A stretch of 64,000 bases of DNA from Escherichia phage tootiki, in sequence record MN850647.1, one strand, 5' to 3'. The notes under the pieces are model-generated. The model saw only the letters and a program-made list of their open reading frames with translations, was not told the DNA's origin and did no database searches. Both the position numbers and the translations under genes were made by a program. Positions 6,187 through 21,987 of this stretch are shown piece by piece. Position 1 is the first letter of the stretch. Each line of letters begins with the position of its first letter.

Positions 6187-6562
6187 TCATTTTATCCCTT
6201 CTAATAATGATATATTCATAATGGGATGTATGGGCTAATTGCTGTGACCAATCCATAGTCATAAATACTTCATACTCATGACCATCAATCATAACAATAT
6301 CAGACTCATTCCACTCTACATCATCTGAAGTTCTAAGTCTATATGTGGTATACAGGATTCTTGTATCGGTAAGCCTGATACCTTCCGGTAAAGCAATCTG
6401 TGTACCATTCTTTACAGAACCTTTGATATATGGCTGGATATTACCTTTACAGTTAACCTCTACAATATCTTGTGAAGCTACCCAATCACCATCATCATTA
6501 TAATAACCGTCTTCAGAGACTTTACGCTTTACTACAAAGCTGTGTCTGTTTAAGAGTCTCAT
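6161..6562 (-). CDS. head-tail joining protein candidate
   Basis: 133 aa ORF in neck region, overlaps neighbours by a few nt. Confidence 0.35.
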   Translation of the reverse strand: MRLLNRHSFVVKRKVSEDGYYNDDGDWVASQDIVEVNCKGNIQPYIKGSVKNGTQIALPEGIRLTDTRILYTTYRLRTSDDVEWNESDIVMIDGHEYEVFMTMDWSQQLAHTSHYEYIIIRRDKMNAVRNSRT

Positions 6563-7041
6563 TTCTTAATACCCTTCTTAGTAGAAATTTTATAAGCAAG
6601 GTTATCTCTTAAGTCACCTGTCTCAACAAGAGGTGCGTTAAAGCCTTTTTTCTTGACTGTGGAAGGTGCGTTAGGAGGGAGGATAGCAGAATTACCAAAA
6701 CCCCTTTTAATTGCCTTTTGAGCATTCTTTGCAAATGCTTCTAAGGTATTTGAAGGGTCTGTGTTGAGACTGCTAAGTTGCTTATATAGATTCTTCTTAG
6801 TCTGCTCTAACAAGGTCTGTTTGTTTAGCATCATAGTGATTTCAAACAACCTACGATATACTTTACCAGAAGCTGAAGGAACCCCAATAACTTCTTGTAA
6901 ATACATTAAAGCAGGATAAGAAAAACCAGAGCTATGTTGACCTTGTTCTTGAAAATACCCAACTTGAGCATTAGCCGTTTGCAAGTTCTTCATAGCCCCG
7001 ACTAATTTTGCTCTAGCGGGGTGAATAACCCTTTTAACCAT
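6559..7041 (-). CDS. head-tail joining protein candidate
   Basis: 160 aa ORF in neck region. Confidence 0.35.
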   Translation of the reverse strand: MVKRVIHPARAKLVGAMKNLQTANAQVGYFQEQGQHSSGFSYPALMYLQEVIGVPSASGKVYRRLFEITMMLNKQTLLEQTKKNLYKQLSSLNTDPSNTLEAFAKNAQKAIKRGFGNSAILPPNAPSTVKKKGFNAPLVETGDLRDNLAYKISTKKGIKK

Positions 7042-7490
7042 TATTCATCTCGCTCGATAATAAATACGCCATTAACACGGTTGCAGTAATCTCTGCCTTC
7101 GTATCTGGCAGCATCACCATATTCTGTGTATTTCTTGACAGAGCAAGGATTCTGACGACGCATGTCAATATCACACTGATTAATACCACCTGCATAGGGT
7201 AGTCCTGAAACAGAGCTTTTAACAAGGTCGTCATAAACAGCTTTCAGAGACTTGAATCTGGAAGAGTTACGTAAATAAACACCACCAACCTTCTCATCTC
7301 CCATCTTGGCTACTTGAAAGAGTAAATATTTAAGAGCTTTGATGGCTGCTTTCTTTTCATCCTTTCCAGATTCTAGATAGAACCACTCTAGCACAGACTG
7401 TTCAATAAGAATTTCATCATTATTGGTGTCTGTGCAGAGGATTCTTACTCTATCAAGAGGGTTATTGGCTGGGTCGCCTGTATAACACAT
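7041..7490 (-). CDS. head completion/adaptor protein candidate
   Basis: 149 aa ORF immediately downstream of major capsid gene. Confidence 0.35.
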   Translation of the reverse strand: MCYTGDPANNPLDRVRILCTDTNNDEILIEQSVLEWFYLESGKDEKKAAIKALKYLLFQVAKMGDEKVGGVYLRNSSRFKSLKAVYDDLVKSSVSGLPYAGGINQCDIDMRRQNPCSVKKYTEYGDAARYEGRDYCNRVNGVFIIERDE

Positions 7491-7511
7491 TCATAACCCT
7501 CCTTAAGAATA

Positions 7512-8618
7512 TTATTCGCCTTCAGCATCAGCGCGAACATCTACCAGCAACTGAGGACGAGTACAGTATGGCAGCATGTAAGAGTGAGCTTCGAAGTCAA
7601 TACCTTCGTCACGGTCTTTTTCGTATTCGAATACATACAGTTCCTGACCAAGTGTATTTGCGTAACCCATCTTAGGACATGGACCGTATGCAACTTCGAA
7701 GATGTTGTTAGCTTCACCAAGCATAGATACGTTAGGGAAAGCATGACCAACACCAACAGTGTCTGCTACACTATCAATGCTCACCAGAGTGTGAACCTTA
7801 CCACGCTTGTCTTTGAACTTACCGTTGTACTGGACAAACTTAACACCACCGTAGTAGAAGGTGTTCATATGAGCCTGAACGCCGTCAGTACCACCAGTTC
7901 TCAGAGAACCAGTAATCTGTTGCCAAGCCAGTGGAGTCTGCTGTGCAAGATAGGCGTCACGAATCTTAGGGTGCTTAGTCAGTTTGCTGAAGAATACACG
8001 GTCAACAACTACGTGAATTTCTTCACCGTTGATTACAGTGCCAGTCTTAGCTTCGTCTTCCATGTGCATACGCAGTTCTTCAATAGAAGCGTCGATGTCA
8101 GCATTAGGGTTGTCAAGGTCGAAGTAAATAGTCTTCTTCTCAACGTCGAACTGTTTGTACAGGTCAGCGTACAGAGTACCACGAGCATCAACAACTTTAC
8201 CCTTCAGAGCTTGCATAAACAGGAACTCACGAGTAATATCAAACTTGGTACGAATCTTCATCAGCTTCTTGGCACGTACTACAGCTTCAGTAGTCAGTTC
8301 GTTTGCAGTGCCTGGCTGACGTACACCCTGAATCTCATCAGGAGTAATGCTTTCAACTTCTTTGAAGTACATCATTGGGAAGCTGATTTGACGAACACGC
8401 TCAGGTGCGCTAGTCTCTGCTTTACGGCTATCACGGTCTACCGCATCAAGCAAGCTAACATCCCAATCAGTCAAGTCCATAAGGAAAGTAGTTTGGGTGA
8501 TTGGTGCTGAACGGAACAGACCTAAGTTGGAAATATACCCATAAGTATTTGGGATAGACTGGACTTCACCAGTCAGGTCAGCAAGGAAAAATCTGCTTTT
8601 TTCAGAATTAGTCAACAT
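7512..8618 (-). CDS. major capsid protein (lambda E-like)
   Basis: 368 aa; follows protease and decoration-like gene; strongly codon-biased, highly expressed appearance. Confidence 0.8.
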   Translation of the reverse strand: MLTNSEKSRFFLADLTGEVQSIPNTYGYISNLGLFRSAPITQTTFLMDLTDWDVSLLDAVDRDSRKAETSAPERVRQISFPMMYFKEVESITPDEIQGVRQPGTANELTTEAVVRAKKLMKIRTKFDITREFLFMQALKGKVVDARGTLYADLYKQFDVEKKTIYFDLDNPNADIDASIEELRMHMEDEAKTGTVINGEEIHVVVDRVFFSKLTKHPKIRDAYLAQQTPLAWQQITGSLRTGGTDGVQAHMNTFYYGGVKFVQYNGKFKDKRGKVHTLVSIDSVADTVGVGHAFPNVSMLGEANNIFEVAYGPCPKMGYANTLGQELYVFEYEKDRDEGIDFEAHSYMLPYCTRPQLLVDVRADAEGE

Positions 8619-8651
8619 TGTAAAATTCTCCAGAATGTCTTATTATTGTTA

Positions 8652-9029
8652 TTACAGGCCAGTTGGTACGAAATCAATACCTTTAGCAGCCAGAGCTGTC
8701 TTGACTGCATCAGCATCAACACCTGATTCAAGAGTAAGCAGGTCTTTTAGTTCTGCGTCACGGTAAATACCAACGACTTTCAACTGACCATGATAAGATA
8801 GTTGTAGGTCTGCGTAGAAGTTAACGATACATACAGAGTCTGCTTGGGCTTCTTCTCCAGCTTGTACCTTAGTACCATCTGCTTTCAGAACTTCACCTAC
8901 ACGGTATTCTGTTGAAGCAACTGGAGTGTACTCTTTACGAGAGTGGCCTGTTGGGGTAATCTGTTCCCAAAGAATGATATCATTCAGAGGTTCTCTGTTA
9001 CCTAACTTAGTAAAACCTTGATATGCCAT
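8652..9029 (-). CDS. head decoration protein (D-like)
   Basis: 125 aa ORF between prohead protease and major capsid, as in lambda C-D-E order. Confidence 0.45.
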   Translation of the reverse strand: MAYQGFTKLGNREPLNDIILWEQITPTGHSRKEYTPVASTEYRVGEVLKADGTKVQAGEEAQADSVCIVNFYADLQLSYHGQLKVVGIYRDAELKDLLTLESGVDADAVKTALAAKGIDFVPTGL

Positions 9030-9040
9030 TATTGTGTTCC

Positions 9041-10387
9041 TTATTTGATAAGAGATTTTAGAGCATTCTGGAGAGCCAGTTTGCGTTGTTCAGCGGTGTC
9101 TTCGGAAGCATTTTTAGCTGGTTCTTTTTCTTCTTCAACCAAATCAGCTTCGCCGTCATTACCCACTTCTTCCATAGCGTTGGAATGTTCAAGAACAGCA
9201 CCAGCAGTTTCTTTCAGCTTGGTAATTTCTGATTCTTTTTCTTCCATTGCAGAAGCATGGGACGCGATAGTTTCATTAAGTTTCTGGTTAGCACCTTCCA
9301 TAGCATTCATAAACAGAACACTCAGAGGGTTATCAAGACCAGCACCTAAAATAGTCGTTGCAGCTTCTTTTGCATCAAACCCAAAAGCTTCAGCAGAAGC
9401 AGAAATCTTATTAGTCAAATCTGACAAAGCAGCTTCCTGTTCTTTAGCTTTCATTTGAGCAACCTGAAGACGCAAAGCTTCTAGTTCTTGCTTTTCTTGT
9501 TCAGTCATTTCTTCACCTGAATTGTTAACGTTTAAACTTACAGGAGCCTCTTCAGAACCTTGTAAGTAATTTAAGAAATCATCTTGAGACATGATTGAGT
9601 TAATTAAACCAAGTTCAAGAGCTTCCTGAGCAGAATAAACATTCGCCTCAGTATTCTTTACAGCTTCTTCAGAGAGATTACGAGATTCGGCTACAAAACC
9701 TGTAAAGGTTGCGTAGGTATCATTAATTCTCTTTTGAAGTCTTTCTTTGCTTTCTTCTGAAAGTGCTTGGAATGGTGAACCCATACCTTTAAACTCACCA
9801 GCTTTGATGACGTTAATTGTTACGCCATTCTTTTCAAATGCTTTAGTTAATTCCTGATGAACCATAATTACACCAATAGAACCAACATCTGCATCTGGTG
9901 ATGCAATAATTTCTTCAGCAGAAGATGCAAGAGCGTATGCAGCGGAACAAGCGAACTCATCTACATAAGCAATAATTTTCTTTTGGCCTCTTGAAGCCAT
10001 GATGTGACGTGCTAATTCAAAGCAACCTGAAGCTTCACCGCCACCAGAATCAATGTGCAGAACAATAGTCTTGATTGACTCATCTGCTAAAGCTTCGTCA
10101 AAGCCTCTACGCAAACCTTCATAAGAGCTTAATCCACCTGTACACATTGCATCAATGAATGTCATACGATGGGTTAAACCACCCATAATAGGGATAATAG
10201 CAATGTCATCTTTTACTTTTAAAAGACTTCTTGCGTCACCTTTGGGTTTATCAAAGTTTACTGCTGCTTGGACATCACCCAGCAATCTGTTATTCACATA
10301 AGTTGCTGCTGAGTGAGCTAATGATTCAGTGGCTAGTAAAGGTTGGTTGAATAATCTATCAGCAAGTCTGAAGATATTCGAACTCAT
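9041..10387 (-). CDS. prohead protease, S49/ClpP-like, with C-terminal scaffold-like coiled coil
   Basis: 448 aa; N-terminal peptidase-like region (IVLHIDSGGGEASG), acidic coiled-coil C-terminus; between portal and capsid. Confidence 0.75.
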   Translation of the reverse strand: MSSNIFRLADRLFNQPLLATESLAHSAATYVNNRLLGDVQAAVNFDKPKGDARSLLKVKDDIAIIPIMGGLTHRMTFIDAMCTGGLSSYEGLRRGFDEALADESIKTIVLHIDSGGGEASGCFELARHIMASRGQKKIIAYVDEFACSAAYALASSAEEIIASPDADVGSIGVIMVHQELTKAFEKNGVTINVIKAGEFKGMGSPFQALSEESKERLQKRINDTYATFTGFVAESRNLSEEAVKNTEANVYSAQEALELGLINSIMSQDDFLNYLQGSEEAPVSLNVNNSGEEMTEQEKQELEALRLQVAQMKAKEQEAALSDLTNKISASAEAFGFDAKEAATTILGAGLDNPLSVLFMNAMEGANQKLNETIASHASAMEEKESEITKLKETAGAVLEHSNAMEEVGNDGEADLVEEEKEPAKNASEDTAEQRKLALQNALKSLIK

Positions 10388-14571: not shown

Positions 14572-14597
14572 TTAAAAAAGACGGCACAGAGACCGTC
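14572..14597 (-). terminator. intrinsic terminator downstream of tRNA array
   Basis: minus strand hairpin GACGG-TCTCTGTG-CCGTC followed by TTTTTT. Confidence 0.5.
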
Positions 14598-14759
14598 AAG
14601 GAGAAACCACAATGTACGTCAGAGACATACTGTATAAGTCTTCTTATAAAGTATAACTCTGTAAAAAAGCCCTGTCTAAAAATACTCTTCGGTAGCGAAA
14701 GGAAGAATACTTATAGCAGGGCATTATTATTATTTTAATTGAGAGAGAGTAAAATAAAT

Positions 14760-14835
14760 TGGAGAATCCGAAGGGACTCGAACCCTTATAAACCTGTTCT
14801 GCAGACAGGTACATATCCATTTCTGTCACGGATTC
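14760..14835 (-). tRNA. tRNA-Cys (anticodon GCA)
   Basis: hand-folded cloverleaf: acceptor GAATCCG/CGGATTC, anticodon loop CTGCAGA, T-arm AAGGG-TTCGAGT-CCCTT, CCA encoded. Confidence 0.7.
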
Positions 14836-14839
14836 AAAT

Positions 14840-14932
14840 TGGAGGAAGATACCAGACTTGAACTGGTACACCGATTTCTCAGCTACTGGCAGTTTAGCAA
14901 ACTGCTCCCTTACCTTTTAGGGTTAATCTTCC
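14840..14932 (-). tRNA. tRNA-Ser (anticodon GCT), class II
   Basis: acceptor GGAAGAT/ATCTTCC, anticodon loop TTGCTAA, long variable arm, T-arm ACCAG-TTCAAGT-CTGGT. Confidence 0.65.
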
Positions 14933-14933
14933 A

Positions 14934-15668
14934 TTATTTCTGTAATGCGTTCTTCATTTCTGGTGTTGCAATAGTGTCAATCACACCAGTTTTACAAGCA
15001 TCGTCAAACCAGTCTGGTAAGATACCTGCTAAGAACCCATTGATATTCGTTTTAAGGTACTCTGCAATAAGGGCAGCTTCTTCTTCAATCATCTGCACAA
15101 CTTCATCTGCATAAGCTGTAATCTTTGAAATACCTTCATTAATTTTACTGACAGCTTGGTTAGCTAAATCAGAAACAGTGTCAAGACCCTTATCAATAGC
15201 GTCTTGTAAGTCACTTAACACACCGTTAACACTGTCTAGTGTGCTGTTAATCATGTCAATAGCTTGCTGACCATACTCTGTAGCAACACCCATAATACCA
15301 CTAAATGGTGTACAACCAACTTGTTCTCCTGCTGCACCCATAACATTGGAGTATCCCTTTGCTACCTGCATACGTGATGAAAACTCATCAATAGACTTTT
15401 GACCGTAGTCTGTTAGGGTCTTAGTAGTCGCTGTAGTGCTTGTAAGGCTTGTTGTAAAGCTGTTTAGAAGGACTGTTGTAAGTCCAGCAGCAACAAGTTT
15501 CTCCTTCATTGTAGGGTCTGTTACAGAGCTAATAGAGCTTACAAGTGATGTAGAGGCAGCTACGGTTCCACCGAGAACTGCTGCACCAGTAATAAGTGGG
15601 TTAGAAAACCCTTTACCGGTTTTTAAGAGATTAAAAATCTCCTTACCTTGTTCTGTCATCTCTTTCAT
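14934..15668 (-). CDS. hypothetical Ala/Ser/Thr-rich protein
   Basis: ORF track start at 15731 overlaps tRNA-Phe; start moved to internal ATG at 15668 (MKEMTEQ). Confidence 0.4.
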   Translation of the reverse strand: MKEMTEQGKEIFNLLKTGKGFSNPLITGAAVLGGTVAASTSLVSSISSVTDPTMKEKLVAAGLTTVLLNSFTTSLTSTTATTKTLTDYGQKSIDEFSSRMQVAKGYSNVMGAAGEQVGCTPFSGIMGVATEYGQQAIDMINSTLDSVNGVLSDLQDAIDKGLDTVSDLANQAVSKINEGISKITAYADEVVQMIEEEAALIAEYLKTNINGFLAGILPDWFDDACKTGVIDTIATPEMKNALQK

Positions 15669-15686
15669 TAAGCACCTTTGAAATTG

Positions 15687-15761
15687 GTAGTCCAGTGGGA
15701 TTTGAACCCTCTTCTCATGTTTTTCAGACACGCGCTTTAACCATATAAGCTACTTGGACTA
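15687..15761 (-). tRNA. tRNA-Phe (anticodon GAA)
   Basis: acceptor TAGTCCA/TGGACTA, anticodon stem CGTGT/ACATG loop CTGAAAA, T-loop TTCAAAT; D-arm weak. Confidence 0.55.
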
Positions 15762-15765
15762 TAAA

Positions 15766-15842
15766 TTGGGGTGACCTACGGGATTTGAACCCGTATAGAC
15801 CATGTTCACAGCATGGGTCATTACCATTTATGATAAGGCCAC
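15766..15842 (-). tRNA. tRNA-His (anticodon GTG)
   Basis: acceptor GTGGCCT/AGGTCAC, D-stem TCAT/ATGA, anticodon loop CTGTGAA, discriminator C, CCA encoded. Confidence 0.7.
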
Positions 15843-15873
15843 ATTTAAGGACTCTCGTAAGAACCCTTAGAAG

Positions 15874-15949
15874 TGGCAGCGGCATAAGGATTTGAACCTT
15901 AATAGGACAGCTTCAGAGACTGCTGCATTGCCAGTTATGCTATACCGCT
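15874..15949 (-). tRNA. tRNA-Gln (anticodon CTG)
   Basis: acceptor AGCGGTA/TGCCGCT, D-stem GCAT/ATGC, anticodon loop CTCTGAA, discriminator G. Confidence 0.65.
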
Positions 15950-15954
15950 AAAAT

Positions 15955-16033
15955 TGGTACTCCATATCGGATTCGAACCGATACATAACACAGATTTTAA
16001 GTCTGGCCTCTCTGCCAATTGGAGTAATGGAGC
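15955..16033 (-). tRNA. tRNA with Leu-type anticodon TAA, class-I length
   Basis: acceptor GCTCCAT/ATGGAGT, T-arm ATCGG-TTCGAAT-CCGAT, anticodon loop CTTAAAA, discriminator A; no long variable arm. Confidence 0.45.
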
Positions 16034-16035
16034 AT

Positions 16036-16111
16036 TGGCGGGGGATGTTGGAATTGAACCAACTTCTTCGATTTCAAAGACCGAGGTTTTAACCTTGTAA
16101 ACTAATCCCCT
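16036..16111 (-). tRNA. tRNA-Gln (anticodon TTG)
   Basis: acceptor with A1-C72 mismatch, D-stem GTTT/AAAC, anticodon stem TCGGT/ATCGA loop CTTTGAA, discriminator G. Confidence 0.6.
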
Positions 16112-16119
16112 TTAAATCT

Positions 16120-16677
16120 TTACTTTCTCAGTGGATGAATAAAGAATGCCAACATAACTCTTTCCCTTGAGAATGCTCTTTCTTCTGGGACAACACTTTT
16201 TAGTTTCCATCCAATATAAATTCTCCAGTAAAACTGTTTACCAAAGACTTTAATTGATGGGATAAAAGCGAATAACCCCCAAGCATTACTGTTCCACATT
16301 AGGAGATAGCCAGTCTGATTATCTTCAGGGTCAGAACTTACGTTGATATTACCTTTCCACTTAGTAACATCTTTTACATCTCTTCCTAATACATGGTAAG
16401 AGAAGTTATAAGCTTTGTTTCTCCAGAGCCATCCAACTCTCTGCATGTAGACACCCAGTTTACCAATCTTTCTAATCTTAGCCCATCTTTTGACGTGGCC
16501 TTCGTCACCATCAATCGGGTTGTCATAGGTCTCCATCCATCTGAATCCAAAAGGCAGATGTCCCTTCTTCTCACTGTAGAATGGAACTACGAAAGGTGCT
16601 AAGATGACTGCTAGGGTTGCTGCAAATGGTTCTAGTAAAGCTAGGAAAATCCATGAAGCATACTTCAAATATCTCAT
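16120..16677 (-). CDS. hypothetical membrane protein
   Basis: 185 aa ORF with hydrophobic N-terminus, embedded in tRNA array. Confidence 0.45.
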   Translation of the reverse strand: MRYLKYASWIFLALLEPFAATLAVILAPFVVPFYSEKKGHLPFGFRWMETYDNPIDGDEGHVKRWAKIRKIGKLGVYMQRVGWLWRNKAYNFSYHVLGRDVKDVTKWKGNINVSSDPEDNQTGYLLMWNSNAWGLFAFIPSIKVFGKQFYWRIYIGWKLKSVVPEERAFSRERVMLAFFIHPLRK

Positions 16678-16696
16678 CTAAATAGCCTCTTAAAAT

Positions 16697-16774
16697 TGGT
16701 GTTCCAAGACGGATTCGAACCGTCACTAATACAAGGTTTGAGCTTGCATCCTCTGCCAATTGGGATACTGGAAC
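16697..16774 (-). tRNA. tRNA with Leu-type anticodon CAA, class-I length
   Basis: acceptor GTTCCAG/TTGGAAC, T-arm GACGG-TTCGAAT-CCGTC, anticodon stem GCAAG/CTTGT loop CTCAAAC, discriminator A. Confidence 0.45.
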
Positions 16775-16775
16775 A

Positions 16776-16850
16776 TGGTACTCACTAAAGGACTTGAACC
16801 TTTTTCTTCATCTTGTAAGGGTGGTGTTTTACCATATAAACTAAGCGAGT
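16776..16850 (-). tRNA. tRNA-like, anticodon position reads TAC (Val) but anticodon stem poorly paired
   Basis: good acceptor, D-arm GTTT/AAAC and T-arm AAAGG-TTCAAGT-CCTTT; anticodon stem only 3 of 5 pairs. Confidence 0.4.
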
Positions 16851-16945
16851 GTGAAAGAGGTCTTAAGTTGTGCCGCTAACTCAACTCCGTGGAATTTGTT
16901 ACGGTCTTCAGTTGACACCAGCGGTCTTTCACTTGACCTCTGAAT

Positions 16946-17022
16946 TGGTGCTGCTCACAGGACTCGAACCTGCATTTCCATCCTTACAAGGGATGTGTAA
17001 TAGCCAATTATACGAAAGCAGC
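16946..17022 (-). tRNA. tRNA-Thr (anticodon TGT)
   Basis: anticodon stem CATCC/GGATG loop CTTGTAA, T-arm GCAGG-TTCGAGT-CCTGT, discriminator A. Confidence 0.7.
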
Positions 17023-17029
17023 ATTAATT

Positions 17030-17104
17030 TGGAGCATCCAGAGGGAATCGAACCCTCAACCTCAGTTTGGAAGACTGTAATTTTCCCGTTTAAACTATGG
17101 ATGC
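17030..17104 (-). tRNA. tRNA-Gly (anticodon TCC)
   Basis: acceptor GCATCCA/TGGATGC, anticodon loop CTTCCAA, T-arm GAGGG-TTCGATT-CCCTC, discriminator T. Confidence 0.65.
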
Positions 17105-17110
17105 ACTAAT

Positions 17111-17186
17111 TGGTGGAGAAGCAGGGAATTGAACCCTGTACTTAAGTTTGCAAAACTTATGTTTTAACCATGTAAACTACATCCCC
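17111..17186 (-). tRNA. tRNA-Ala (anticodon TGC)
   Basis: D-stem GTTT/AAAC, anticodon stem TAAGT/ACTTA loop TTTGCAA, T-arm CAGGG-TTCAATT-CCCTG, discriminator A. Confidence 0.7.
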
Positions 17187-17192
17187 AATATC

Positions 17193-17268
17193 TGGTACAG
17201 GTGGAGGGAATTGAACCCATCGTCTTACTGATTAAGAGTCAGCCGCATAACCATTTTGCTACACCTGC
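17193..17268 (-). tRNA. tRNA-Lys (anticodon CTT)
   Basis: acceptor GCAGGTG/CACCTGT, anticodon loop CTCTTAA; T-stem ATGGG/CCCTC imperfect, same as tRNA-Lys(TTT). Confidence 0.55.
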
Positions 17269-17275
17269 ATTAATT

Positions 17276-17353
17276 TGGTAGGAGACAAGGGATTCGAACC
17301 CTCAAACATCTCGTTCTAAGCGAGATAGGTTTACCAATTACCGTCAATCTCCC
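17276..17353 (-). tRNA. tRNA with Leu-type anticodon TAG, class-I length
   Basis: anticodon stem ATCTCG/CGAGAT perfect, loop CTTAGAA, T-arm GAGGG-TTCGAAT-CCCTT, discriminator A; no long variable arm. Confidence 0.5.
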
Positions 17354-17432
17354 ATTAAATCTTTTTAGAGAACTTCTAAGAACCTAAGCAACAAGGTTCC
17401 ACAACAAGCTGTAATAACCTTAGAAGCCCTCT

Positions 17433-17452
17433 AAAAAGACCTAAAAAGGTCT
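17433..17452 (-). terminator. intrinsic terminator-like hairpin inside tRNA array
   Basis: minus strand AGACC-TTTTTA-GGTCT followed by TTTT. Confidence 0.4.
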
Positions 17453-17611
17453 TTGCATAGTCTTGTTTAATCCGGTGACTATAACCTTTGGAGAGCTTGA
17501 TATTATCTCTTCTCCGTGACACCTACTAGGTGCTTTACTGTGCATGTACGACAATACACTAGGGATACCAAAGCAACATCCGAATGAAGCTTGGCTTTAA
17601 ATCTTATTAGG

Positions 17612-17699
17612 CGGTAAGTAAAGGAGTCGAACCCTCACCGTATCTCTACAGTGGCAACTGTTTTCAAGACAGTTTGGCTACCATTAGCCGCTACCTACC
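17612..17699 (-). tRNA. tRNA-Ser (anticodon TGA), class II
   Basis: acceptor GGTAGGT/ACTTACC, anticodon stem ACTGT/ACAGT loop CTTGAAA, 20 nt variable arm, discriminator G. Confidence 0.7.
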
Positions 17700-17717
17700 C
17701 CTAATAAGACTTTGGCA

Positions 17718-17795
17718 TGGGACGGAGGAGTTGAACCACTTTGAAACGGTTTTGGAGGCCGTTGCTCATGCCTTAGAGTCTTAACATCGTCCCAC
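17718..17795 (-). tRNA. tRNA-like; possible Trp (anticodon CCA) with enlarged D-loop
   Basis: acceptor GTGGGAC/GTCCCAT plus G73 and encoded CCA, T-loop TTCAACT; core does not fold canonically. Confidence 0.35.
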
Positions 17796-17932
17796 ACTAT
17801 AATTCGAAGCTTACCGTATTTTCACAACACTGTAAAGCCCCTTCTCAGATTATTTACATGTTCTGGAAAACATGAGATACAGACCACCTCCTTACAGGAA
17901 GACCCGCTTAGGTCGTCTAAGTAATCTGCTAA

Positions 17933-18280
17933 CTAATACTTTGCATGTCTTACCCTATGGCAATTTGAACATAGCAAAACACATTTGTCAAGTTCATCTT
18001 TTAGTTCTTGAGAGAACTTAAGGCTTTTCCTATGACCAATGTTAAAATCTTTATCTGAAGGATTCAAATGATGGAAGTCATACACTGCTGGATGATATTT
18101 CTTACCACAATCATGACAAACCCCACCTTTGTACTCAATAGCTGAGAGTTTAAGTGCTCTTTGTCTTTCTATGGTTTGCTCATTAACACACTTTTTACAG
18201 TATGAATGAGTTCTCCTACCATCTTTCATGTAGAAATCATTTTCATCCTTGCTAAGTTTGCACCTAATACAAGTTTTCAT
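17933..18280 (-). CDS. HNH endonuclease
   Basis: Cys pairs CIRCK and CKKC, HH-LNPSD-N motif, CSNCH; start moved to MKTCIRC because track start overlaps a tRNA. Confidence 0.7.
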   Translation of the reverse strand: MKTCIRCKLSKDENDFYMKDGRRTHSYCKKCVNEQTIERQRALKLSAIEYKGGVCHDCGKKYHPAVYDFHHLNPSDKDFNIGHRKSLKFSQELKDELDKCVLLCSNCHRVRHAKY

Positions 18281-18294
18281 GATTTCTCCAAAAT

Positions 18295-18376
18295 TGGTCG
18301 AGGCGGCAGGACTCGAACCCGCATACTCCACTTACTCGGTTAACGTCTGTTTAGAAGACAGATGAGATACGCCCCG
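18295..18376 (-). tRNA. tRNA-like; possible Arg (anticodon TCT) with atypical geometry
   Basis: acceptor CGGGGCG/CGCCTCG, T-arm GCGGG-TTCGAGT-CCTGC, CCA encoded; perfect hairpin TCTGT-CTTCTAA-ACAGA but no room for a D-arm. Confidence 0.35.
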
Positions 18377-18624
18377 TAATTATCTTTAAAGACTCTCTTA
18401 GAAAGCCCTTAAAGATGCCCACCTTATTAATCATACCGTGGGCTAGTACGCCAAATTCTTTGATGAGGGATTGGAAGACCTCACTGGTGTTTAGCCTATC
18501 AAGCTACTGCCAGAAAAACATTGTCGTTTGCATTTATTTTAAATTTGCAAAATAGACGCTACGCAACGAAAACTAAGGTTACTATAAAGTAGTCACATCT
18601 CAGTGTCAACAACTTTATTGAAAG

Positions 18625-18699
18625 TGGTTGTAGGTGAGGGTATCGAACCCTCTTCTAACGGTTATCAGCCGTTTGCATTACCATTTATGCTAACCCACA
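18625..18699 (-). tRNA. tRNA-Ile (anticodon GAT)
   Basis: D-stem GCAT/ATGC, anticodon stem AACGG/CCGTT loop CTGATAA, T-arm GAGGG-TTCGATA-CCCTC, discriminator A. Confidence 0.7.
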
Positions 18700-18701
18700 A
18701 T

Positions 18702-18778
18702 TGGAGGTTCAGGTGGGATTCAAACCCACATTCATAGGGCTTATGAAACCCTTGCATTACCTTATCTGCGACTGAACC
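18702..18778 (-). tRNA. tRNA-Met (anticodon CAT)
   Basis: acceptor GGTTCAG/CTGAACC, anticodon stem AAGGG/GCCCT loop TTCATAA, T-arm GTGGG-TTTGAAT-CCCAC. Confidence 0.65.
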
Positions 18779-18783
18779 ATTTT

Positions 18784-18859
18784 TGGTAGAAGTGGAGGGA
18801 TTCGAACCCATCGCCTGTCAGATTAAAAGTCTGCCGCATCACCATTCTGCTACACTTCC
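18784..18859 (-). tRNA. tRNA-Lys (anticodon TTT)
   Basis: acceptor GGAAGTG/CACTTCT, anticodon loop CTTTTAA, discriminator A; T-stem ATGGG/CCCTC imperfect. Confidence 0.55.
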
Positions 18860-19010
18860 ATTAAATCATCTTTGCAGTAACCTACGCAGACCTTGCTAAA
18901 GGGTCTGTAGAGTCATTTCATATTAAGCTAATCTAGAATCATACTAAGGAAATTCATCGGCACTCATGGGACGACATAATTAGCCACATAAGCTACTGCA
19001 AAGATAATTA

Positions 19011-19141
19011 CCAGACCGTTGTTTATCATCTTAAGTGCTACCATTACACCAACTCGACCTCTGCCGAGTGAAGGAATCGAACCTTCGCCTTTTCTTTACC
19101 GAGAAATAGATTGTTTAAGTTTTGCTGTAAACGGTCTTCTG
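19011..19141 (-). ncRNA. structured spacer module a: terminal inverted repeat enclosing a tRNA-like T-arm and D-arm-like segment
   Basis: minus strand CAGAAGACCG...CGGTCTGG ends pair; internal GAAGG-TTCGATT-CCTTC and AGTTGGTGTAATGGTAGCAC; no anticodon arm. Confidence 0.4.
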
Positions 19142-19154
19142 TAAATTTGTTGAG

Positions 19155-19230
19155 CCAGACCAAGTTTTAAATTTTTCAAAATTGAATTGGCTTGAAAATA
19201 TCATACATTCTTGCTGTATTTGGTCTTCTG
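19155..19230 (-). repeat. spacer module b (CCAGACCA...TGGTCTTCTG inverted-repeat unit)
   Basis: same terminal inverted repeat as module a. Confidence 0.4.
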
Positions 19231-19291
19231 CTCCTTTAAAGAATACTCGTAAGAACTCTTTAAGGGAGGGGCTAAATAGCCCTCTCAAAAT

Positions 19292-19368
19292 TGGCGGCTA
19301 CGATGAGACTTGAACTCAAATCATCTCCCGTGACAGGGGAGTATTTTCTCCAGTTAAACTACATAGCC
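19292..19368 (-). tRNA. tRNA-Asp (anticodon GTC)
   Basis: anticodon stem CTCCC/GGGAG loop CTGTCAC, acceptor GGCTATG/CGTAGCC, discriminator G. Confidence 0.7.
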
Positions 19369-19373
19369 TTTAT

Positions 19374-19461
19374 TGGTGTGCCGTGTAGGAGTCGAACCTA
19401 CCGAGTCTCAATGACAAGGGATTTACAGTCCCCACCGCTACCATCTACGGGATAACGACAC
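19374..19461 (-). tRNA. tRNA-Tyr (anticodon GTA), class II
   Basis: T-arm GTAGG-TTCGACT-CCTAC, anticodon loop CTGTAAA, about 15 nt variable arm, discriminator A. Confidence 0.7.
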
Positions 19462-19469
19462 ATTTAATT

Positions 19470-19546
19470 TGGCGGTTAGTCAGGGATTCGAACCCTGTGC
19501 CATTCGCTTAACAGGCGACCGCACATACCTTATGTGCTTCCTAACC
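19470..19546 (-). tRNA. tRNA-Asn (anticodon GTT)
   Basis: D-stem GCAC/GTGC, anticodon loop CTGTTAA, T-arm CAGGG-TTCGAAT-CCCTG, discriminator G. Confidence 0.65.
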
Positions 19547-19557
19547 TTAATACATTG

Positions 19558-19618
19558 CCAGACCGTGTTTTTTCTTTTATCCGCAAAAAAGTATTTTGTT
19601 GCTGAATACGGTCTTCTG
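19558..19618 (-). repeat. spacer module c (CCAGACCG...CGGTCTTCTG inverted-repeat unit)
   Basis: same terminal inverted repeat; internal GCAA/TTGC hairpin. Confidence 0.4.
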
Positions 19619-19624
19619 CAAAAT

Positions 19625-19701
19625 TGGAGGCGGGTGCAGGAGTCGAACCTGCCGATACCATGCTAATGAGACATGTGAGACGCCCTTTCTCTATACCCGC
19701 A
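19625..19701 (-). tRNA. tRNA-Met (anticodon CAT), second copy with 1-72 mismatch
   Basis: T-arm GCAGG-TTCGACT-CCTGC, D-stem GAGA/TCTC, anticodon stem CATGT/GCATG loop CTCATTA; T1-C72 unpaired. Confidence 0.55.
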
Positions 19702-19712
19702 ATTCTCAATGA

Positions 19713-19784
19713 CCAGACCAAATATCTTCTTTGTCCGATTTCGTGTCAGATGAGTAGATTAAGTTTGCTGTAATTGGTCTTCTG
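19713..19784 (-). repeat. spacer module d (CCAGACCA...TGGTCTTCTG inverted-repeat unit)
   Basis: same terminal inverted repeat as modules a-c. Confidence 0.4.
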
Positions 19785-19791
19785 TCAAAAC

Positions 19792-19869
19792 TGGCGTTCC
19801 AGAAGGGATTTGAACCCTCAGATATCCACTTTGAAAGAGTGGTGACTTTACCATTTTGTCTACTGGAAC
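19792..19869 (-). tRNA. tRNA-Glu (anticodon TTC)
   Basis: acceptor GTTCCAG/CTGGAAC, anticodon stem CCACT/AGTGG loop CTTTCAA, discriminator G. Confidence 0.7.
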
Positions 19870-19876
19870 ATTAATT

Positions 19877-19953
19877 TGGTCTCTGTTGGAGGACTTGAAC
19901 CTCCGGCCTTACCGCCCCAAACGGAATGCTCTACCAAGCTGAGCTAAACAGAG
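19877..19953 (-). tRNA. tRNA-Pro (anticodon TGG)
   Basis: acceptor CTCTGTT/AACAGAG, D-stem GCTC/GAGC, anticodon loop TTTGGGG, T-arm GGAGG-TTCAAGT-CCTCC. Confidence 0.65.
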
Positions 19954-19980
19954 ATAAACTTTTCAAACTCTATGTAACCA

Positions 19981-20009
19981 CTTTAACATTATTTTTTAGT
20001 GGTTGTCAA
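19981..20009 (-). promoter_or_regulatory. sigma70-like promoter for the tRNA array
   Basis: minus strand TTGACA, 17 nt spacer, TTAAAG, about 25 nt upstream of first tRNA. Confidence 0.45.
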
Positions 20010-20079
20010 GAACTTTTTTAAAATATTTTTCAGTATCTTAGAAAAGCTCTCATTTCGTTTCTATGTAGGACATATTAAA

Positions 20080-20111
20080 GGGTATCAAACACATTGTCAA
20101 TACCCTTTTTA
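20080..20111. terminator. hairpin terminator after vWA gene
   Basis: GGGTAT-N14-ATACCC hairpin followed by TTTTT on plus strand, immediately after stop of 20119-21534. Confidence 0.4.
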
Positions 20112-20118
20112 AAACTTT

Positions 20119-21534
20119 TTACCAGATGTAACGGTCAATCATTACTGCTTTGAGCATTACGCTGATTGGGTCAAACTTCTCACCACCAAGCAGAGCTTTT
20201 AAAGTGGCTGGAGAGAACCCTGATACCATTGCTACACCATTATCCTTAACAGACACTTCGCAAGTACCATTACGGTTTGCTAAGTACCAGAATACTAGTT
20301 GTGGCATTTCGTATCCAGCTTTTTTGTACTTACTCTGAATTGCTTCAAAGTTTGTACGACCATTTGCACCATCAACCTGATTGAACTCCATATCAGAGAA
20401 GATGATAAGCTTACTTGGCATATCTTTCTGAGTCAAGTTGTTTCTATTACCTACCTCAAGAATACGGTCAAAAGCTGCTTGTAAGTTAGTTGAACCATAT
20501 TCAACATGACGCATTACCTGACGATGACGGTTTCGTAAATCACCACTCAGTTCAATGAAATGAGGGTTTGTTGAATAGACCATTAACTCATCTTTAAAGC
20601 AACCTGTATTGCGTTCTGCTATATACAAGGCAAGTGATACACCAATATCAAGGGCAGTGATTGAGCCAAGATTCACCCAAGACATTGAGCTTGAAACATC
20701 AGTCATACACAGGATGTTTTCACCTTCTGCCATCCAGTTTGGTAGTGCTTTCCACTGCTCATTAGCAACATCTGCATTACCATACTTAATAGATTTAATC
20801 ACATCGTATGGGTAAACAGCACCAGCGTTAATCTTAGCCTCACCCTTTGATAGTGATTCGATGTAAGCTTTGTAACGTTCCCCATCTTTACGGTTAAAGA
20901 GCTTTTGGTAACGTGCAGCAGCAAGTGAGGGAATCTTGCTGTAGTCAATCTTACCAAACTCATTAGCAGAGATTTTTTGCTCAACCGTATCAGACAGTGC
21001 AGATAACAGTGTGCGATACTCCTTCTCGCTTAAGTTTGCAAATTTACAGAAACGTTTTACAAACTGTTTGTGGCGTGGTTTTACTCGTGGCAACCACTTA
21101 GCTGCTAAACCTGCTGTTGCAGGGTCTAGTAATACTGCTTCTAAATGTTTGAAGGCATCTGTCTCAAAACGAGTATCTACAAAGATTTTGAAGTCATCAA
21201 AACGACCCAGTTCTGCAATCTTATCCATAATGCGAAGAACCTGTGTAGGTTCTAAAACCTTATCTTCAATCGCTTGAAGTAAAACAGTTCGGAAAGCTTT
21301 ACGCTCACCCATACCTTCTCGTACATCTCGCATATGCAGTAAAATACGAACTGCAACATCAACATCCTCACGCAAAGCTTTGTAGAACAGGTCTGGTAAG
21401 ATTTCTACATTGCTACGGCTTGAGCCAGCGGATTTGTAGAAGTCTACCAGAGCAGACATTGATGAAGTATGGTTTACAGCACCATTTTCAGTTCGACCTG
21501 CATGAAGGTGCGCATGTTTAAATAACTCGCTCAT
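20119..21534 (-). CDS. vWA/MIDAS-motif protein with helical N-terminal domain (DUF2828-like; Ro60-like architecture)
   Basis: 471 aa; MIDAS-like DVSSSM around residue 275; N-terminal TENGA...S..LVDFY...GSSRS pattern. Confidence 0.55.
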   Translation of the reverse strand: MSELFKHAHLHAGRTENGAVNHTSSMSALVDFYKSAGSSRSNVEILPDLFYKALREDVDVAVRILLHMRDVREGMGERKAFRTVLLQAIEDKVLEPTQVLRIMDKIAELGRFDDFKIFVDTRFETDAFKHLEAVLLDPATAGLAAKWLPRVKPRHKQFVKRFCKFANLSEKEYRTLLSALSDTVEQKISANEFGKIDYSKIPSLAAARYQKLFNRKDGERYKAYIESLSKGEAKINAGAVYPYDVIKSIKYGNADVANEQWKALPNWMAEGENILCMTDVSSSMSWVNLGSITALDIGVSLALYIAERNTGCFKDELMVYSTNPHFIELSGDLRNRHRQVMRHVEYGSTNLQAAFDRILEVGNRNNLTQKDMPSKLIIFSDMEFNQVDGANGRTNFEAIQSKYKKAGYEMPQLVFWYLANRNGTCEVSVKDNGVAMVSGFSPATLKALLGGEKFDPISVMLKAVMIDRYIW

Positions 21535-21615
21535 ATTTTACTCTCTTCTCTCATTTGTTGTTTGATGTGACAGACTTTAGAGCAACTTTGTAGAGTCTGT
21601 CAACATCTTTTAAGA

Positions 21616-21987
21616 TTATTTTTTGAGAGTCGCTACAGCAGAGAACGTTGGTTTGTTATCTGTCTGTTGTTGACCACCATTATCAGGAGTCTTCTTAGTG
21701 TCTGCTGCAAGTGCTTTCATCTCACCTGCTGAGTGAGTAAAGATAGTTTTACCGACCTCAATCATACTCTTGATGGTTACATCATCTGTGTTTAACCCGA
21801 ACTCTGCAAGCTTAGCAGCGTCCCTTGTAACAATCGCCTCAAACAACTTTGCAGCAAACTCAGCAGAATTATCAATGGTCAGTTGAGCTTTTACGAGTGA
21901 GCTTTTGTTACGAGAGCCTTTTGGTCTTCCAGATGGGTTTCCAGACTGGCCTTTTTTAAACTGGCCTTTGTTTGTTCTGTTTTTCAT
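21616..21987 (-). CDS. small protein with GNPSGRPKG motif (DUF5681-like; small terminase candidate)
   Basis: 123 aa; N-terminal FKKGQSGNPSGRPKG, a motif I associate with proteins encoded just upstream of large terminases. Confidence 0.45.
   Translation of the reverse strand: MKNRTNKGQFKKGQSGNPSGRPKGSRNKSSLVKAQLTIDNSAEFAAKLFEAIVTRDAAKLAEFGLNTDDVTIKSMIEVGKTIFTHSAGEMKALAADTKKTPDNGGQQQTDNKPTFSAVATLKK

Follow-up and report, generated by a model that had tools for sequence, protein, structure and literature searches.

The window analysed here, a 64-kb stretch (64,000 nt) of the Felix O1-type Escherichia phage tootiki (MN850647.1), carries on its minus strand a gene for a 471-aa protein (20119..21534), followed on the same strand by an array of genes for tRNA-Pro (19877-19953), tRNA-Glu (19792-19869), tRNA-Met (19625-19701), tRNA-Asn (19470-19546), tRNA-Tyr (19374-19461) and tRNA-Asp (19292-19368). 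A sigma-70-like promoter (TTGACA-18-TAAAGT, 21574..21603) was predicted upstream of the protein gene. Two further predicted promoters (TTGACA-17-TAATAT, 20100-20072; TTGACA-18-TAAAGT, 20009-19980) sit at 19980..20100, between the stop codon of this gene and tRNA-Pro; all three are on the minus strand and are consensus matches only. An HNH endonuclease gene is present in the same tRNA array. At gathering thresholds, an Rfam search of the whole window returned tRNAs only, and some GenBank records label the region 'tRNA-OTHER' or 'putative tRNA pseudogene'. The original prediction had placed four spacer modules with inverted-repeat ends in this array, and we found them on the minus strand, 330-1110 nt past the stop codon of the protein gene.

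The DUF2828 protein and its predicted fold

The protein had been read as a helical N-terminal domain followed by a vWA domain with a DVSSSM motif, the architecture of Ro60/Rsr or of DUF2828 proteins, and the open reading frame, Pfam and a structure model agreed with this. It matched Pfam DUF2828, an N-terminal helical ring domain, with 103 bits (cut-off 29) and DUF7788 (vWA) with 148.1 bits (cut-off 27.1; E 2.9e-43), and it was assigned to PHROG 850, 'RNA-binding protein' (E 2e-182). In the AF2 model (pLDDT 88.7, pTM 0.88), residues 1-265 are helical and are predicted to fold into the HEAT-like helical-repeat ring that forms a TROVE module, while residues 274-450 are alpha/beta and make up a C-terminal vWA domain with a MIDAS motif. 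DVSSSM occupies residues 279-284, and the MIDAS signature is complete, since none of D279, S281, S283, T349 and D381 varies among 52 homologs.

A Foldseek comparison of the model with the PDB, which had been proposed as a check for a TROVE-like fold, returned full-length Ro60, Rsr or phage Ro60 structures for all of the top 10 matches (E 3e-8 to 2e-6); the vWA domain also yielded vWA structural matches. Pfam TROVE (PF05731) gave no match to the protein at E<=0.1, and PDB sequence searches, begun from the protein alone or from a profile of 52 sequences, gave chance matches only, with no Ro60 among them. Because of this lack of sequence matches to TROVE or PDB proteins, Ro60 homology rests on predicted structure, according to which the protein is a divergent Ro60 with a helical-repeat ring and a vWA/MIDAS domain, corresponding to Pfam DUF2828+DUF7788. 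Ro60/TROVE proteins characteristically bind Y RNA on the outside of the ring and pass the 3' ends of RNAs through its cavity.

An ortholog with 96.8% identity, gp130 (bas63_0130) of Bas63 (Escherichia phage JohannRWettstein), likewise lies upstream of a tRNA array. A 2024 PhageMaP preprint reported that gp130 is structurally similar to Ro60 and counters Ppl defence, as phage lacking the gene grow less well on a host that expresses Ppl; its authors speculated that Y RNAs might be among the annotated tRNAs and identified no RNA partner (PMC11482910). The Ro60-like fold is therefore already known for gp130 (PMC11482910), and what is new is the RNA family alongside DUF2828. Our candidate RNAs are unannotated spacers, in contrast to the annotated tRNA genes guessed for Bas63 (PMC11482910), and the Bas63 record annotates two small 'hypothetical protein' CDSs, in antisense, in the stretch that holds modules a and b. 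Literature searches covering DUF2828, PF11443 and UCP015417 turned up no study of function; papers naming the family mention DUF2828 in plants.

Structure and conservation of the spacer RNAs

The modules, all on the minus strand, are built alike: an outer stem of 3-4 bp and an inner stem of 7-8 bp are separated by a purine bulge and followed by a single-stranded UWCAGCAA and a variable insert. Module d (19710..19787), flanked by tRNA-Glu and tRNA-Met, has the outer stem UGAC/GUCA, a bulge of AGA versus G, the inner stem AGACCAA/UUGGUCU, the motif UUACAGCAA and a hairpin-containing insert. Module c (19556..19620), between tRNA-Met and tRNA-Asn, combines the outer stem UGC/GCA and the same AGA versus G bulge with the inner stem AGACCG/CGGUCU, the motif AUUCAGCAA and an A-rich insert. 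The bulge recurs in module b (19152..19233; outer stem GAGC/GCUC, with covariation; inner stem AGACCAA/UUGGUCU; motif AUACAGCAA) and in module a (19008..19144; outer stem UUAC/GUAA; inner stem AGACCGUU/AACGGUCU; motif UUACAGCAA). Our covariance model R1 scored module d at 48.5 bits (E 1e-8), module c at 43.9, module b at 40.0 and the 5' part of module a at 26.6 bits, and the Rfam model RF01414 gave 17.5 bits for module d and 26.7 for module c. Two modules have the ends CAGAAGACCG...CGGTCTGG and the other two CAGAAGACCA...TGGTCTGG. The 64 kb contain exactly four copies of AGACCNNNTNCAGCAA, each at a module, and YGGTCTGG occurs seven times in the window against 2.05 expected, four of the seven being module ends.

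A possible fifth element (18860..19007, minus strand) is a conserved structure of ~148 nt with a 12-bp closing stem, in which 9 of 24 pairs are compensatory (4 sequences). It encloses a minimal hairpin, CUAC-AGACC-CUUUAGCAA-GGUCU-GC-GUAG (18882-18910), a variant of the stem and AGCAA motif of the modules. Model R1 did not detect this element; the minimal module is probably also a small non-coding RNA.

The original prediction had noted that module a contains a T arm and a D-arm-like segment with no anticodon arm, and each of these features was located as described: the T arm GAAGG-UUCGAUU-CCUUC at 19070-19086 and the D arm GUGU-AAUGGUA-GCAC at 19035-19049, with the anticodon arm absent. Beyond this, we identified a closed acceptor-like hairpin (ACUCGGC-AGAG-GUCGAGU, 19052-19069) between the T and D arms and a V-like hairpin (19091-19106) upstream of the T arm, so that the insert resembles a tRNA cloverleaf whose arms are circularly permuted to V, T, closed acceptor, D. 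RNAalifold recovered the V, T, AS and D arms, with 14 of 35 pairs compensatory, and permuted tRNA-like inserts are found in the RNAs of many relatives. We also considered a permuted tRNA gene that yields a functional tRNA after circularisation, and rejected it, given that the anticodon arm is missing and that bacteria are not known to have the bulge-helix-bulge splicing endonuclease that such genes require.

The single-sequence folding energies of the modules were unremarkable (z -0.9 to -2.4); their structure is backed by comparative data. Covariation of the terminal stem, which had been named as a test of the prediction, was present in the inner and outer stems as well as in the tRNA-like arms of module a. 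Among 101 distinct sequences the inner stem was 97.9% paired, compared with at most 54% in slid controls. Double changes occurred at 7/7 of its pairs and filled 267 cells versus 79.5 in shuffles (0/500 shuffles reached 267), a count made on an alignment fitted to the model and thus biased toward pairing. The outer stem was paired at 302 of 324 positions, versus 160 and 71 when slid, and took at least five different sequences. In alignment A3, the columns before and at the stem start were A (74%), A (80%) and G (99%), and those at the RNA end C (99%), U (79%) and G (96%); U-W-CAGCAA was kept at 97-100% per position in phage RNAs. The modules belong to a previously undescribed RNA family, AAG-stem-UUACAGCAA...stem-CUG, which is not in Rfam.

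Co-occurrence of the RNAs with DUF2828 genes

A first descriptor, which accepted any 6-bp stem with a 3-bp outer stem, gave 259 versus 124 matches by strand with many false positives; being too permissive, it was dropped for a stricter one and then for the covariance model. The stricter descriptor gave 243 matches on the gene strand and 27 on the opposite strand, with 18 expected. Descriptor matches within the DUF2828 coding sequence itself (GGATTCTCTCCAGCAA, which encodes the conserved SGFSPA) were discarded as false. In 1.14 Mb, model R1 gave 110 matches at E<=1, of which 109 were on the gene strand and most less than 1 kb from a DUF2828 gene. Within the 64-kb window it found the four modules and nothing else.

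Relatives carry arrays of up to five copies of the RNA, and at loci L018 and L021 it adjoins DUF2828 where there are no tRNA genes. It also adjoins a DUF2828 gene, on the strand of that gene, in distant relatives that include phages of Listeria, Staphylococcus, Campylobacter and Mycobacterium, where the protein shares 29-36% identity with that of the window. We then performed a reciprocal test in IMG/VR, with the matches classed by a strict 7-bp stem plus G in place of a looser 'structured' class. DUF2828 lay in the same stretch for 17 of 35 stem-forming motif matches, always on the same strand, and beside none of 86 motif matches without the stem; for about half of the stem-forming matches, the short stretch available held no DUF2828 gene. 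Such adjacency can stem from a shared pathway instead of direct binding. The pairing of this RNA family with DUF2828 in phages that differ widely from one another suggests a new viral equivalent of the Ro60-Y RNA particle.

A candidate ribonucleoprotein and its relation to known systems

The locus likely specifies a Ro60/Y-RNA-type ribonucleoprotein of the phage that differs in its RNA recognition module, and we infer that its protein binds the RNAs directly. The modules would be small non-coding RNAs co-transcribed with the tRNA array from the two predicted promoters downstream of the protein gene, and processing of the adjacent tRNAs by RNase P and the tRNA 3'-end machinery would set them free. 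Modules c and d begin a few nt past one tRNA and stop 8-9 nt short of the next, and tRNA end-processing would therefore release both. The proposed protein-binding module comprises the bulged terminal helix with near-invariant closing A-U and G-C pairs, followed immediately by the single-stranded U-W-CAGCAA, and the 3' CUG, to which each RNA would add its own 'effector' insert. The insert of module a may be a tRNA mimic that tRNA-recognising enzymes could bind, as for YrlA; it cannot be charged, because its acceptor stem is closed by a loop and the anticodon arm is missing. By analogy with Rsr-YrlA-PNPase, the RNAs might tether the ring protein, or gate it, toward RNA substrates or host RNases, and the anti-Ppl phenotype of gp130 suggests a function during infection, either in counter-defence or in RNA surveillance. 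The RNAs are candidates for the missing RNA component of this anti-Ppl activity.

The RNA might instead be functionally linked to DUF2828 yet not be its ligand, serving as a substrate, as a decoy for a host nuclease that attacks tRNAs or as the ligand of another phage or host factor. The evidence at hand is co-location and co-orientation, the recognition motif differs from the one presumed for Ro60 (PMC4201824), and the RRM protein Rnp1A directly binds DdR-21, one of the similar Class I RNAs of Dictyostelium (PMC7919456). We nevertheless regard this as unlikely, given that the RNA-gene pairing is kept in phages of four bacterial phyla while all other neighbours change, that the RNA stays ~100-600 nt from the DUF2828 gene, and that the predicted fold is that of a ring dedicated to RNA binding, with known relatives that bind small RNAs encoded next to them in the same orientation (PMC4201824; PMC12135203). 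Still less probable are cis-acting elements of the tRNA transcript or the DUF2828 mRNA, such as processing sites, insulating spacers or UTR autoregulatory operators. These would suit window modules that lie a few nt from tRNA ends and the many relatives that have a copy directly before or after the DUF2828 coding sequence, but they sit poorly with arrays of up to five copies, also in loci free of tRNA genes, and with complete tRNA mimics whose covarying stems a processing signal would not need. Moreover, the window modules have their own predicted promoters, apart from that of the protein gene.

The terminal inverted repeats are typical of MITEs, and together with the HNH gene and the GenBank labels they would fit an origin from decaying tRNA genes, or as leftovers or targets of mobile elements (MITE-like repeats, homing-endonuclease scars), in a tRNA array prone to recombination, with the vWA protein unrelated. 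However, conservation of motif and stem is confined to one strand, with the stem changing by compensatory substitutions, the RNA tracks DUF2828 in unrelated genomes, and the order of the tRNA-like arms is consistently permuted, which is not expected from tRNA decay. This explanation has a very slim chance of being correct and has already been largely refuted by the strand bias of the R1 matches, the covariation and the reciprocal test.

The proposed Ro60-type particle shares several features with bacterial Rsr-Yrl systems. In these, YrlA has the order V-T-AS-D and is encoded on the strand of rsr, no more than 4 kb away, as in Salmonella rsr-yrlBA-rtcBA, and Rsr also occurs with YrlA or YrlB in mycobacteriophages, in Caulobacter phage CcrColossus and in Bacillus phage G (Chen et al. 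2014, PMC4201824). Like them, the window combines a ring protein, here predicted, that ends in a vWA/MIDAS domain with several small RNAs on the same strand within a few kb, the modules lying within the ~4 kb of a Ro60 ortholog that is characteristic of YrlA. Module a resembles YrlA (RF02553) in its terminal helix around a tRNA-like V-T-closed acceptor-D domain, the other modules resemble YrlB in having the terminal module only, and an RtcB ligase gene lies near the locus in a Listeria phage relative, as in Salmonella.

Thus, the YrlA comparison made in the original prediction held for design, strand and adjacency, and failed for family membership. The Rfam search that it had proposed gave no match of YrlA or Y_RNA to 18850-20130, even at E<=10, and the YrlA gathering score (69 bits) was not reached in the window. 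The motif GNCGAA(N0-1)G, which Ro60 orthologs are thought to read (PMC4201824), is absent from all four modules, and AAG-stem-UWCAGCAA...CUG (CAGAAGACC...UWCAGCAA) stands in its place. In the relative L018, positions 7770-7880 matched the full Rfam YrlA model with 38.2 bits (E 3.5e-6), aligned through T/AS/D only. Further differences are that the window RNAs are interleaved with tRNA genes and that the protein, unlike Rsr, is not TROVE by sequence but DUF2828/DUF7788, and at 471 aa is shorter than the solved Rsr and Xenopus Ro60 chains (496-529 residues). The Ro60 of Thermus phage phiLo (PMC12135203; PDB 9KOP, 9L5Y) is, in contrast, a sequence-recognisable TROVE protein with 15-16% identity to that of the window, and its Yrl1 and Yrl2 carry a CGAA motif in a bulge, unlike the window RNAs (PMC12135203).

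Of the five E-value searches covering phage RNAs, four had RF01414, the Dictyostelium Class I RNAs (Aspegren 2004; Kjellin 2021, PMC7919456), as their top Rfam match other than tRNA; in the L018 search YrlA came first. The RF01414 scores stayed below the gathering score of 41.5 bits, with 34.1 in L059, 28.2 in L021, 18-20 in L018 and at best 26.7 in the window. Class I RNAs are eukaryotic nuclear genes with a DUSE promoter ~60 nt upstream and are reported as unique to Dictyostelia (PMC7919456), whereas ours are phage genes with sigma-70-like promoters. Both are ~50-65 nt long, with a 6-7 bp covarying terminal stem whose first G-C pair is invariant, an AAG start, a CUG(U) end, a single-stranded (C)UUACAGCAA right after the 5' strand of the stem, a variable remainder rich in A/U and multiple copies in each genome. 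In D. discoideum the pattern reads GTTGRCCTTACAGCAA...GTCAACTG (PMC5054030), and phage RNAs match 8-9 of the 11 positions of the Class I motif CCUUACAGCAA, with the spacing off by one nt.

The proposed particle would extend the Ro60-Y RNA theme to another protein lineage, one that reads a different RNA motif. The uncharacterised DUF2828/DUF7788 family, which has matches in 709 phage records, metagenomic proteins in the thousands and, in published accounts, members in plants, would gain a candidate RNA ligand whose code is defined in both sequence and structure, and the conserved unannotated tRNA-array spacers of Felix O1-like phages, which are used in typing and therapy, would be accounted for. 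The phage RNAs are also possible relatives of the Class I RNAs, which are abundant eukaryotic RNAs. We put forward, as a tentative and rather doubtful proposal, that phage stem-UUACAGCAA RNAs and Class I RNAs form one family, with DUF2828 as the conserved partner of the module, in a second and widespread branch of Ro60-type ribonucleoproteins found in both phages and eukaryotes. If true, this link would touch RNAs that have so far been held unique to Dictyostelia and tied to multicellularity.

The Ro60-like gene and the four RNA modules

The window derives from a Felix O1-like myovirus (Felixounavirus), and Escherichia phage bumzen and many Salmonella and Escherichia phages share 95-97% identity with it over window 18800-21600. 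Twenty-four tRNA genes are arrayed on the minus strand at 14760-19953, and the Ro60-like gene lies directly upstream of this array on the same strand. Its ORF (20119-21534, minus strand) encodes a 471-aa protein that matched DUF2828 (103 bits) and DUF7788 (148 bits) in Pfam, as well as PHROG 850, 'RNA-binding protein'. The helical N-terminal domain and the vWA domain with a DVSSSM motif had been described correctly in the original prediction. Pfam TROVE was not found in the protein, and neither its single sequence nor a 52-sequence profile found Ro60 among PDB sequences. The whole protein is nevertheless predicted to have the Ro60 fold, an assignment made from predicted structure and not from sequence homology. 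The same family is named 'Ro-like RNA binding protein' by SEA-PHAGES annotators and 'RNA-binding protein' by RefSeq and PHROGs.

Modules a (19008-19144), b (19152-19233), c (19556-19620), and d (19710-19787), all on the minus strand, share one architecture. An outer stem of 3-4 bp (UUAC/GUAA in a, GAGC/GCUC in b, UGC/GCA in c, UGAC/GUCA in d) is followed by an asymmetric bulge, AGA facing G, and by an inner stem of 6-8 bp (AGACCR.../...YGGUCU). After the 5' strand of the inner stem comes an unpaired U-W-CAGCAA motif, and then a variable insert. The sequence AGACCNNNTNCAGCAA occurs exactly four times in the 64 kb, each time in a module. These results confirmed the proposed four spacer modules with inverted-repeat ends next to the Ro60-like gene and gave them a common plan.

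The minimum-energy structure of the module a insert contains four hairpins: a V-like hairpin, a T arm (GAAGG-UUCGAUU-CCUUC), a 7-bp hairpin (ACUCGGC-AGAG-GUCGAGU) at the position of a loop-closed acceptor stem, and a D arm (GUGU-AAUGGUA-GCAC). Together they form a cloverleaf in circular permutation, opened at the anticodon stem, and their V-T-AS-D order (AS, the closed acceptor-like stem) is the one described for the bacterial Y RNA YrlA (PMC4201824). RNAalifold analysis of seven Ounavirinae versions of module a recovered all of these helices, with compensatory changes at 14 of 35 pairs, including six of the seven acceptor-like pairs. The T arm and D-arm-like segment lacking an anticodon arm, noted earlier from the sequence, were borne out.

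Other features were observed around the gene and the array. The gene next upstream of the Ro60-like gene (21616-21987, minus strand) encodes a 123-aa DUF5681 protein with the N-terminal sequence GNPSGRPKGSRNK; this position is kept in the syntenic relatives L081-L083, including Yersinia phage P778, whose Ro60-like proteins are only 53-62% identical to that of the window. Within the array, a tRNA at 18298-18376 (minus strand) matched Rfam at 33.4 bits and was missed by ARAGORN. The HNH endonuclease ORF at 17933-18331 (minus strand; 132 aa as listed) overlaps this tRNA by 34 nt, so it probably starts at an internal Met (MKTCIRC...). Phage Bas63 lacks the HNH gene at the corresponding place in its array, suggesting a homing-endonuclease insertion.

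Covariation and linkage to the protein gene

In L081-L083, the same modules lie among the tRNAs and retain the CAGCAA motif, while their stems differ in sequence (AGUAUC/GAUACU, AGACUA/UAGUCU, AGUGUC/GACACU, GGACUG/CAGUCC, GGAUUC/GAAUCC, and GGACUC/GAGUCC). We searched 80 viral contigs, each with a gene for a relative of the protein (39-99% identity) oriented to the plus strand, using a descriptor consisting of a 6-bp stem beginning AG or GG, 0-2 nt, W-N-CAGCA-W, and the complementary strand. This yielded 243 matches on the gene strand versus 27 on the opposite strand, with about 18 expected from shuffles. In the de-duplicated set, at least one instance was present in 72 of 84 loci; most instances lay less than 1 kb from the gene, 65 of them within 500 nt downstream.

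For a covariance model, R1, we took 42 diverse short instances and specified the 7-bp inner stem as the sole structure. Across 1.14 Mb, R1 gave 110 matches (E<=1); 109 fell on the gene strand, and within the 64-kb window the only matches were the four modules. In the alignment derived from R1, whose fitting to the model favours pairing, 97.9% of inner-stem cells were paired, all seven pairs varied on both sides, and 267 cells were changed on both sides, compared with 79.5 in shuffles (0 of 500 reached 267); slid controls paired at no more than 54%. For the outer stem, which is specific to the Ounavirinae versions, 302 of 324 positions were paired, compared with 160 and 71 after sliding by one. 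Column counts gave a 5' consensus A-A-G (74, 80, and 99%) leading into the stem, U (100%), W, and CAGCAA (97-99%) after its 5' strand, and C (99%), U (79%), and G (96%) at the end of its 3' strand.

Two further observations concern variant forms. A conserved structure of about 148 nt (18860-19007, minus strand), between module a and tRNA-Lys, has a 12-bp closing stem (AUCUUUGCAGUA/UACUGCAAAGAU) with compensatory changes in relatives; R1 did not match this element, and the minimal hairpin inside it, AGACC-CUUUAGCAA-GGUCU at 18882-18910, looks like a stripped-down copy of a module. Short marine and metagenomic versions, such as L021 9782-9858, L027 1526-1599, and L058 16024-16107, have an A/U-rich insert in which the motif core recurs two or three times (ACAGCAA ... 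CAAGCAA ... UAGCAA/UAAGCA), and from sequence these repeats could represent multiple protein-binding sites in a single RNA.

The RNA tracks the protein gene and not tRNAs. Contig L018 carries at least five copies upstream of the gene and L021 one copy downstream, and neither contains tRNA genes (13-17 kb). With filters off, R1 also matched copies directly next to the DUF2828 gene and on its strand in four further phages, whose proteins are only 29-36% identical to that of the window: two in Listeria phage WIL-1, ending 185 nt before the gene; three in tandem in Staphylococcus phage 6ec, starting 12 nt after it; one in Campylobacter phage F374, ending 13 nt before it; and one in Mycobacterium phage Rumpelstiltskin, located 32 nt downstream of gp54, whose annotation reads 'Ro-like RNA binding protein'. 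In a reciprocal test, IMG/VR was scanned for AAGGNNNNTTACAGCAAA, giving 121 matches, of which 35 can form a 7-bp stem plus G. A DUF2828 gene was present within the returned stretch for 17 of these 35, all on the gene's strand and 16 of them at 99-606 nt from it, and for 0 of the 86 stemless matches.

Downstream of the DUF2828 gene, WIL-1 (5581-9455) encodes an HD-domain protein, a 'tRNA splicing ligase' (RtcB), a NADAR-domain protein, and a 'tRNA amidotransferase'. The RtcB gene lies 1.3 kb downstream, and this RNA-repair neighbourhood recalls the Salmonella rsr-yrlBA-rtcBA operon. Phage contig L059 has DUF2828 and three RNA copies; roughly 1.2 kb upstream of these copies it encodes a full-length tmRNA (14586-14955, 74.8 bits).

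Relation to known RNA families

Rfam 15 contains no family for these RNAs. Among Rfam E-value searches covering them, only two non-tRNA families recurred at their exact sites, YrlA and the Dictyostelium Class I RNA (RF01414). The full YrlA model matched L018 7770-7880 at 38.2 bits (gathering score 69; E 3.5e-6), aligning through the T arm, closed acceptor, and D arm with the terminal helix excluded. Permuted tRNA-like inserts are equally clear in many other relatives, for example L018 7370-7516, L078 7203-7347, and L033 10145-10297. At L064 10320-10436, the arms instead follow the order D, anticodon-like, T, so the same frame hosts two topologies of tRNA mimic; there the terminal stem occupies the place of the acceptor stem.

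The Class I model matched L059 (34.1 bits), L021 (28.2), module c (26.7), module d (17.5), and three L018 copies (18-20), all below its gathering score of 41.5 bits. Class I RNAs are 42-65 nt long, with a covarying 6-bp terminal stem, an invariant first G, an AAG start, a CUGU end, and an 11-nt single-stranded motif adjoining the 5' stem strand (PMC7919456), a description that the phage consensus fits closely. The D. discoideum search pattern was GTTGRCCTTACAGCAA...GTCAACTG, and Class I RNAs were reported absent outside Dictyostelia, phages not being among the organisms described as searched (PMC5054030). By the thresholds of the two families, the phage RNAs are members of neither; kinship with Class I RNAs is a lead.

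Ro60 orthologs with adjoining YrlA-like RNAs are known from over 250 bacteria and from 22 phages (PMC4201824), and a solved structure exists for a phage Ro60 that has two Y-like RNAs (PMC12135203). We found no paper identifying the RNAs beside this protein family. The Bas63 record leaves the module spacers unannotated; where modules b and a lie (L084 4930-5204), it lists two small antisense 'hypothetical protein' CDSs, bas63_0137 and bas63_0138, which are probably not genes.

A candidate Ro60-like particle

Consensus matching predicted two promoters with a perfect TTGACA downstream of the gene's stop codon and ahead of tRNA-Pro (20100-20072 and 20009-19980, minus strand) and a third promoter before the Ro60-like gene (21603-21574, minus strand). 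In modules c and d, the 5' end follows the preceding tRNA by a few nt and the 3' end stops 8-9 nt short of the next one, so RNase P and tRNA 3'-end enzymes would free them as units, whose ends the bulged terminal helix would protect. Most invariant nucleotides belong to the 5' strand or to the single strand next to it (AAG, U-W-CAGCAA); the 3' side contributes nothing conserved beyond CUG. Ro60 is similar in that it contacts the Y RNA helix mainly through its 5' strand (PMC4201824), and for this reason we take the conserved module as a putative protein-binding site. The variable inserts would serve as adaptor parts; that of module a, with a closed acceptor and no anticodon, would be a tRNA mimic that cannot be charged.

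Several functions could be served by such a particle. It could tether host exoribonucleases, by analogy with Rsr-Y RNA-PNPase; it could act in tRNA surveillance or repair, given the RtcB gene near DUF2828 in WIL-1; or it could act in counter-defence, as in the Ppl phenotype reported for the Bas63 ortholog, gp130.

The proposed Ro60/Y-RNA-like RNP next to the tRNA array is supported both in its design and by comparative evidence, and membership of the YrlA family fell away below threshold. The Ro60-like annotation of the protein family existed already; the candidate RNA partners are the new part. By analogy, the evidence supports a candidate particle that would work like the Ro60-Y RNA pair, with a distinct recognition module.
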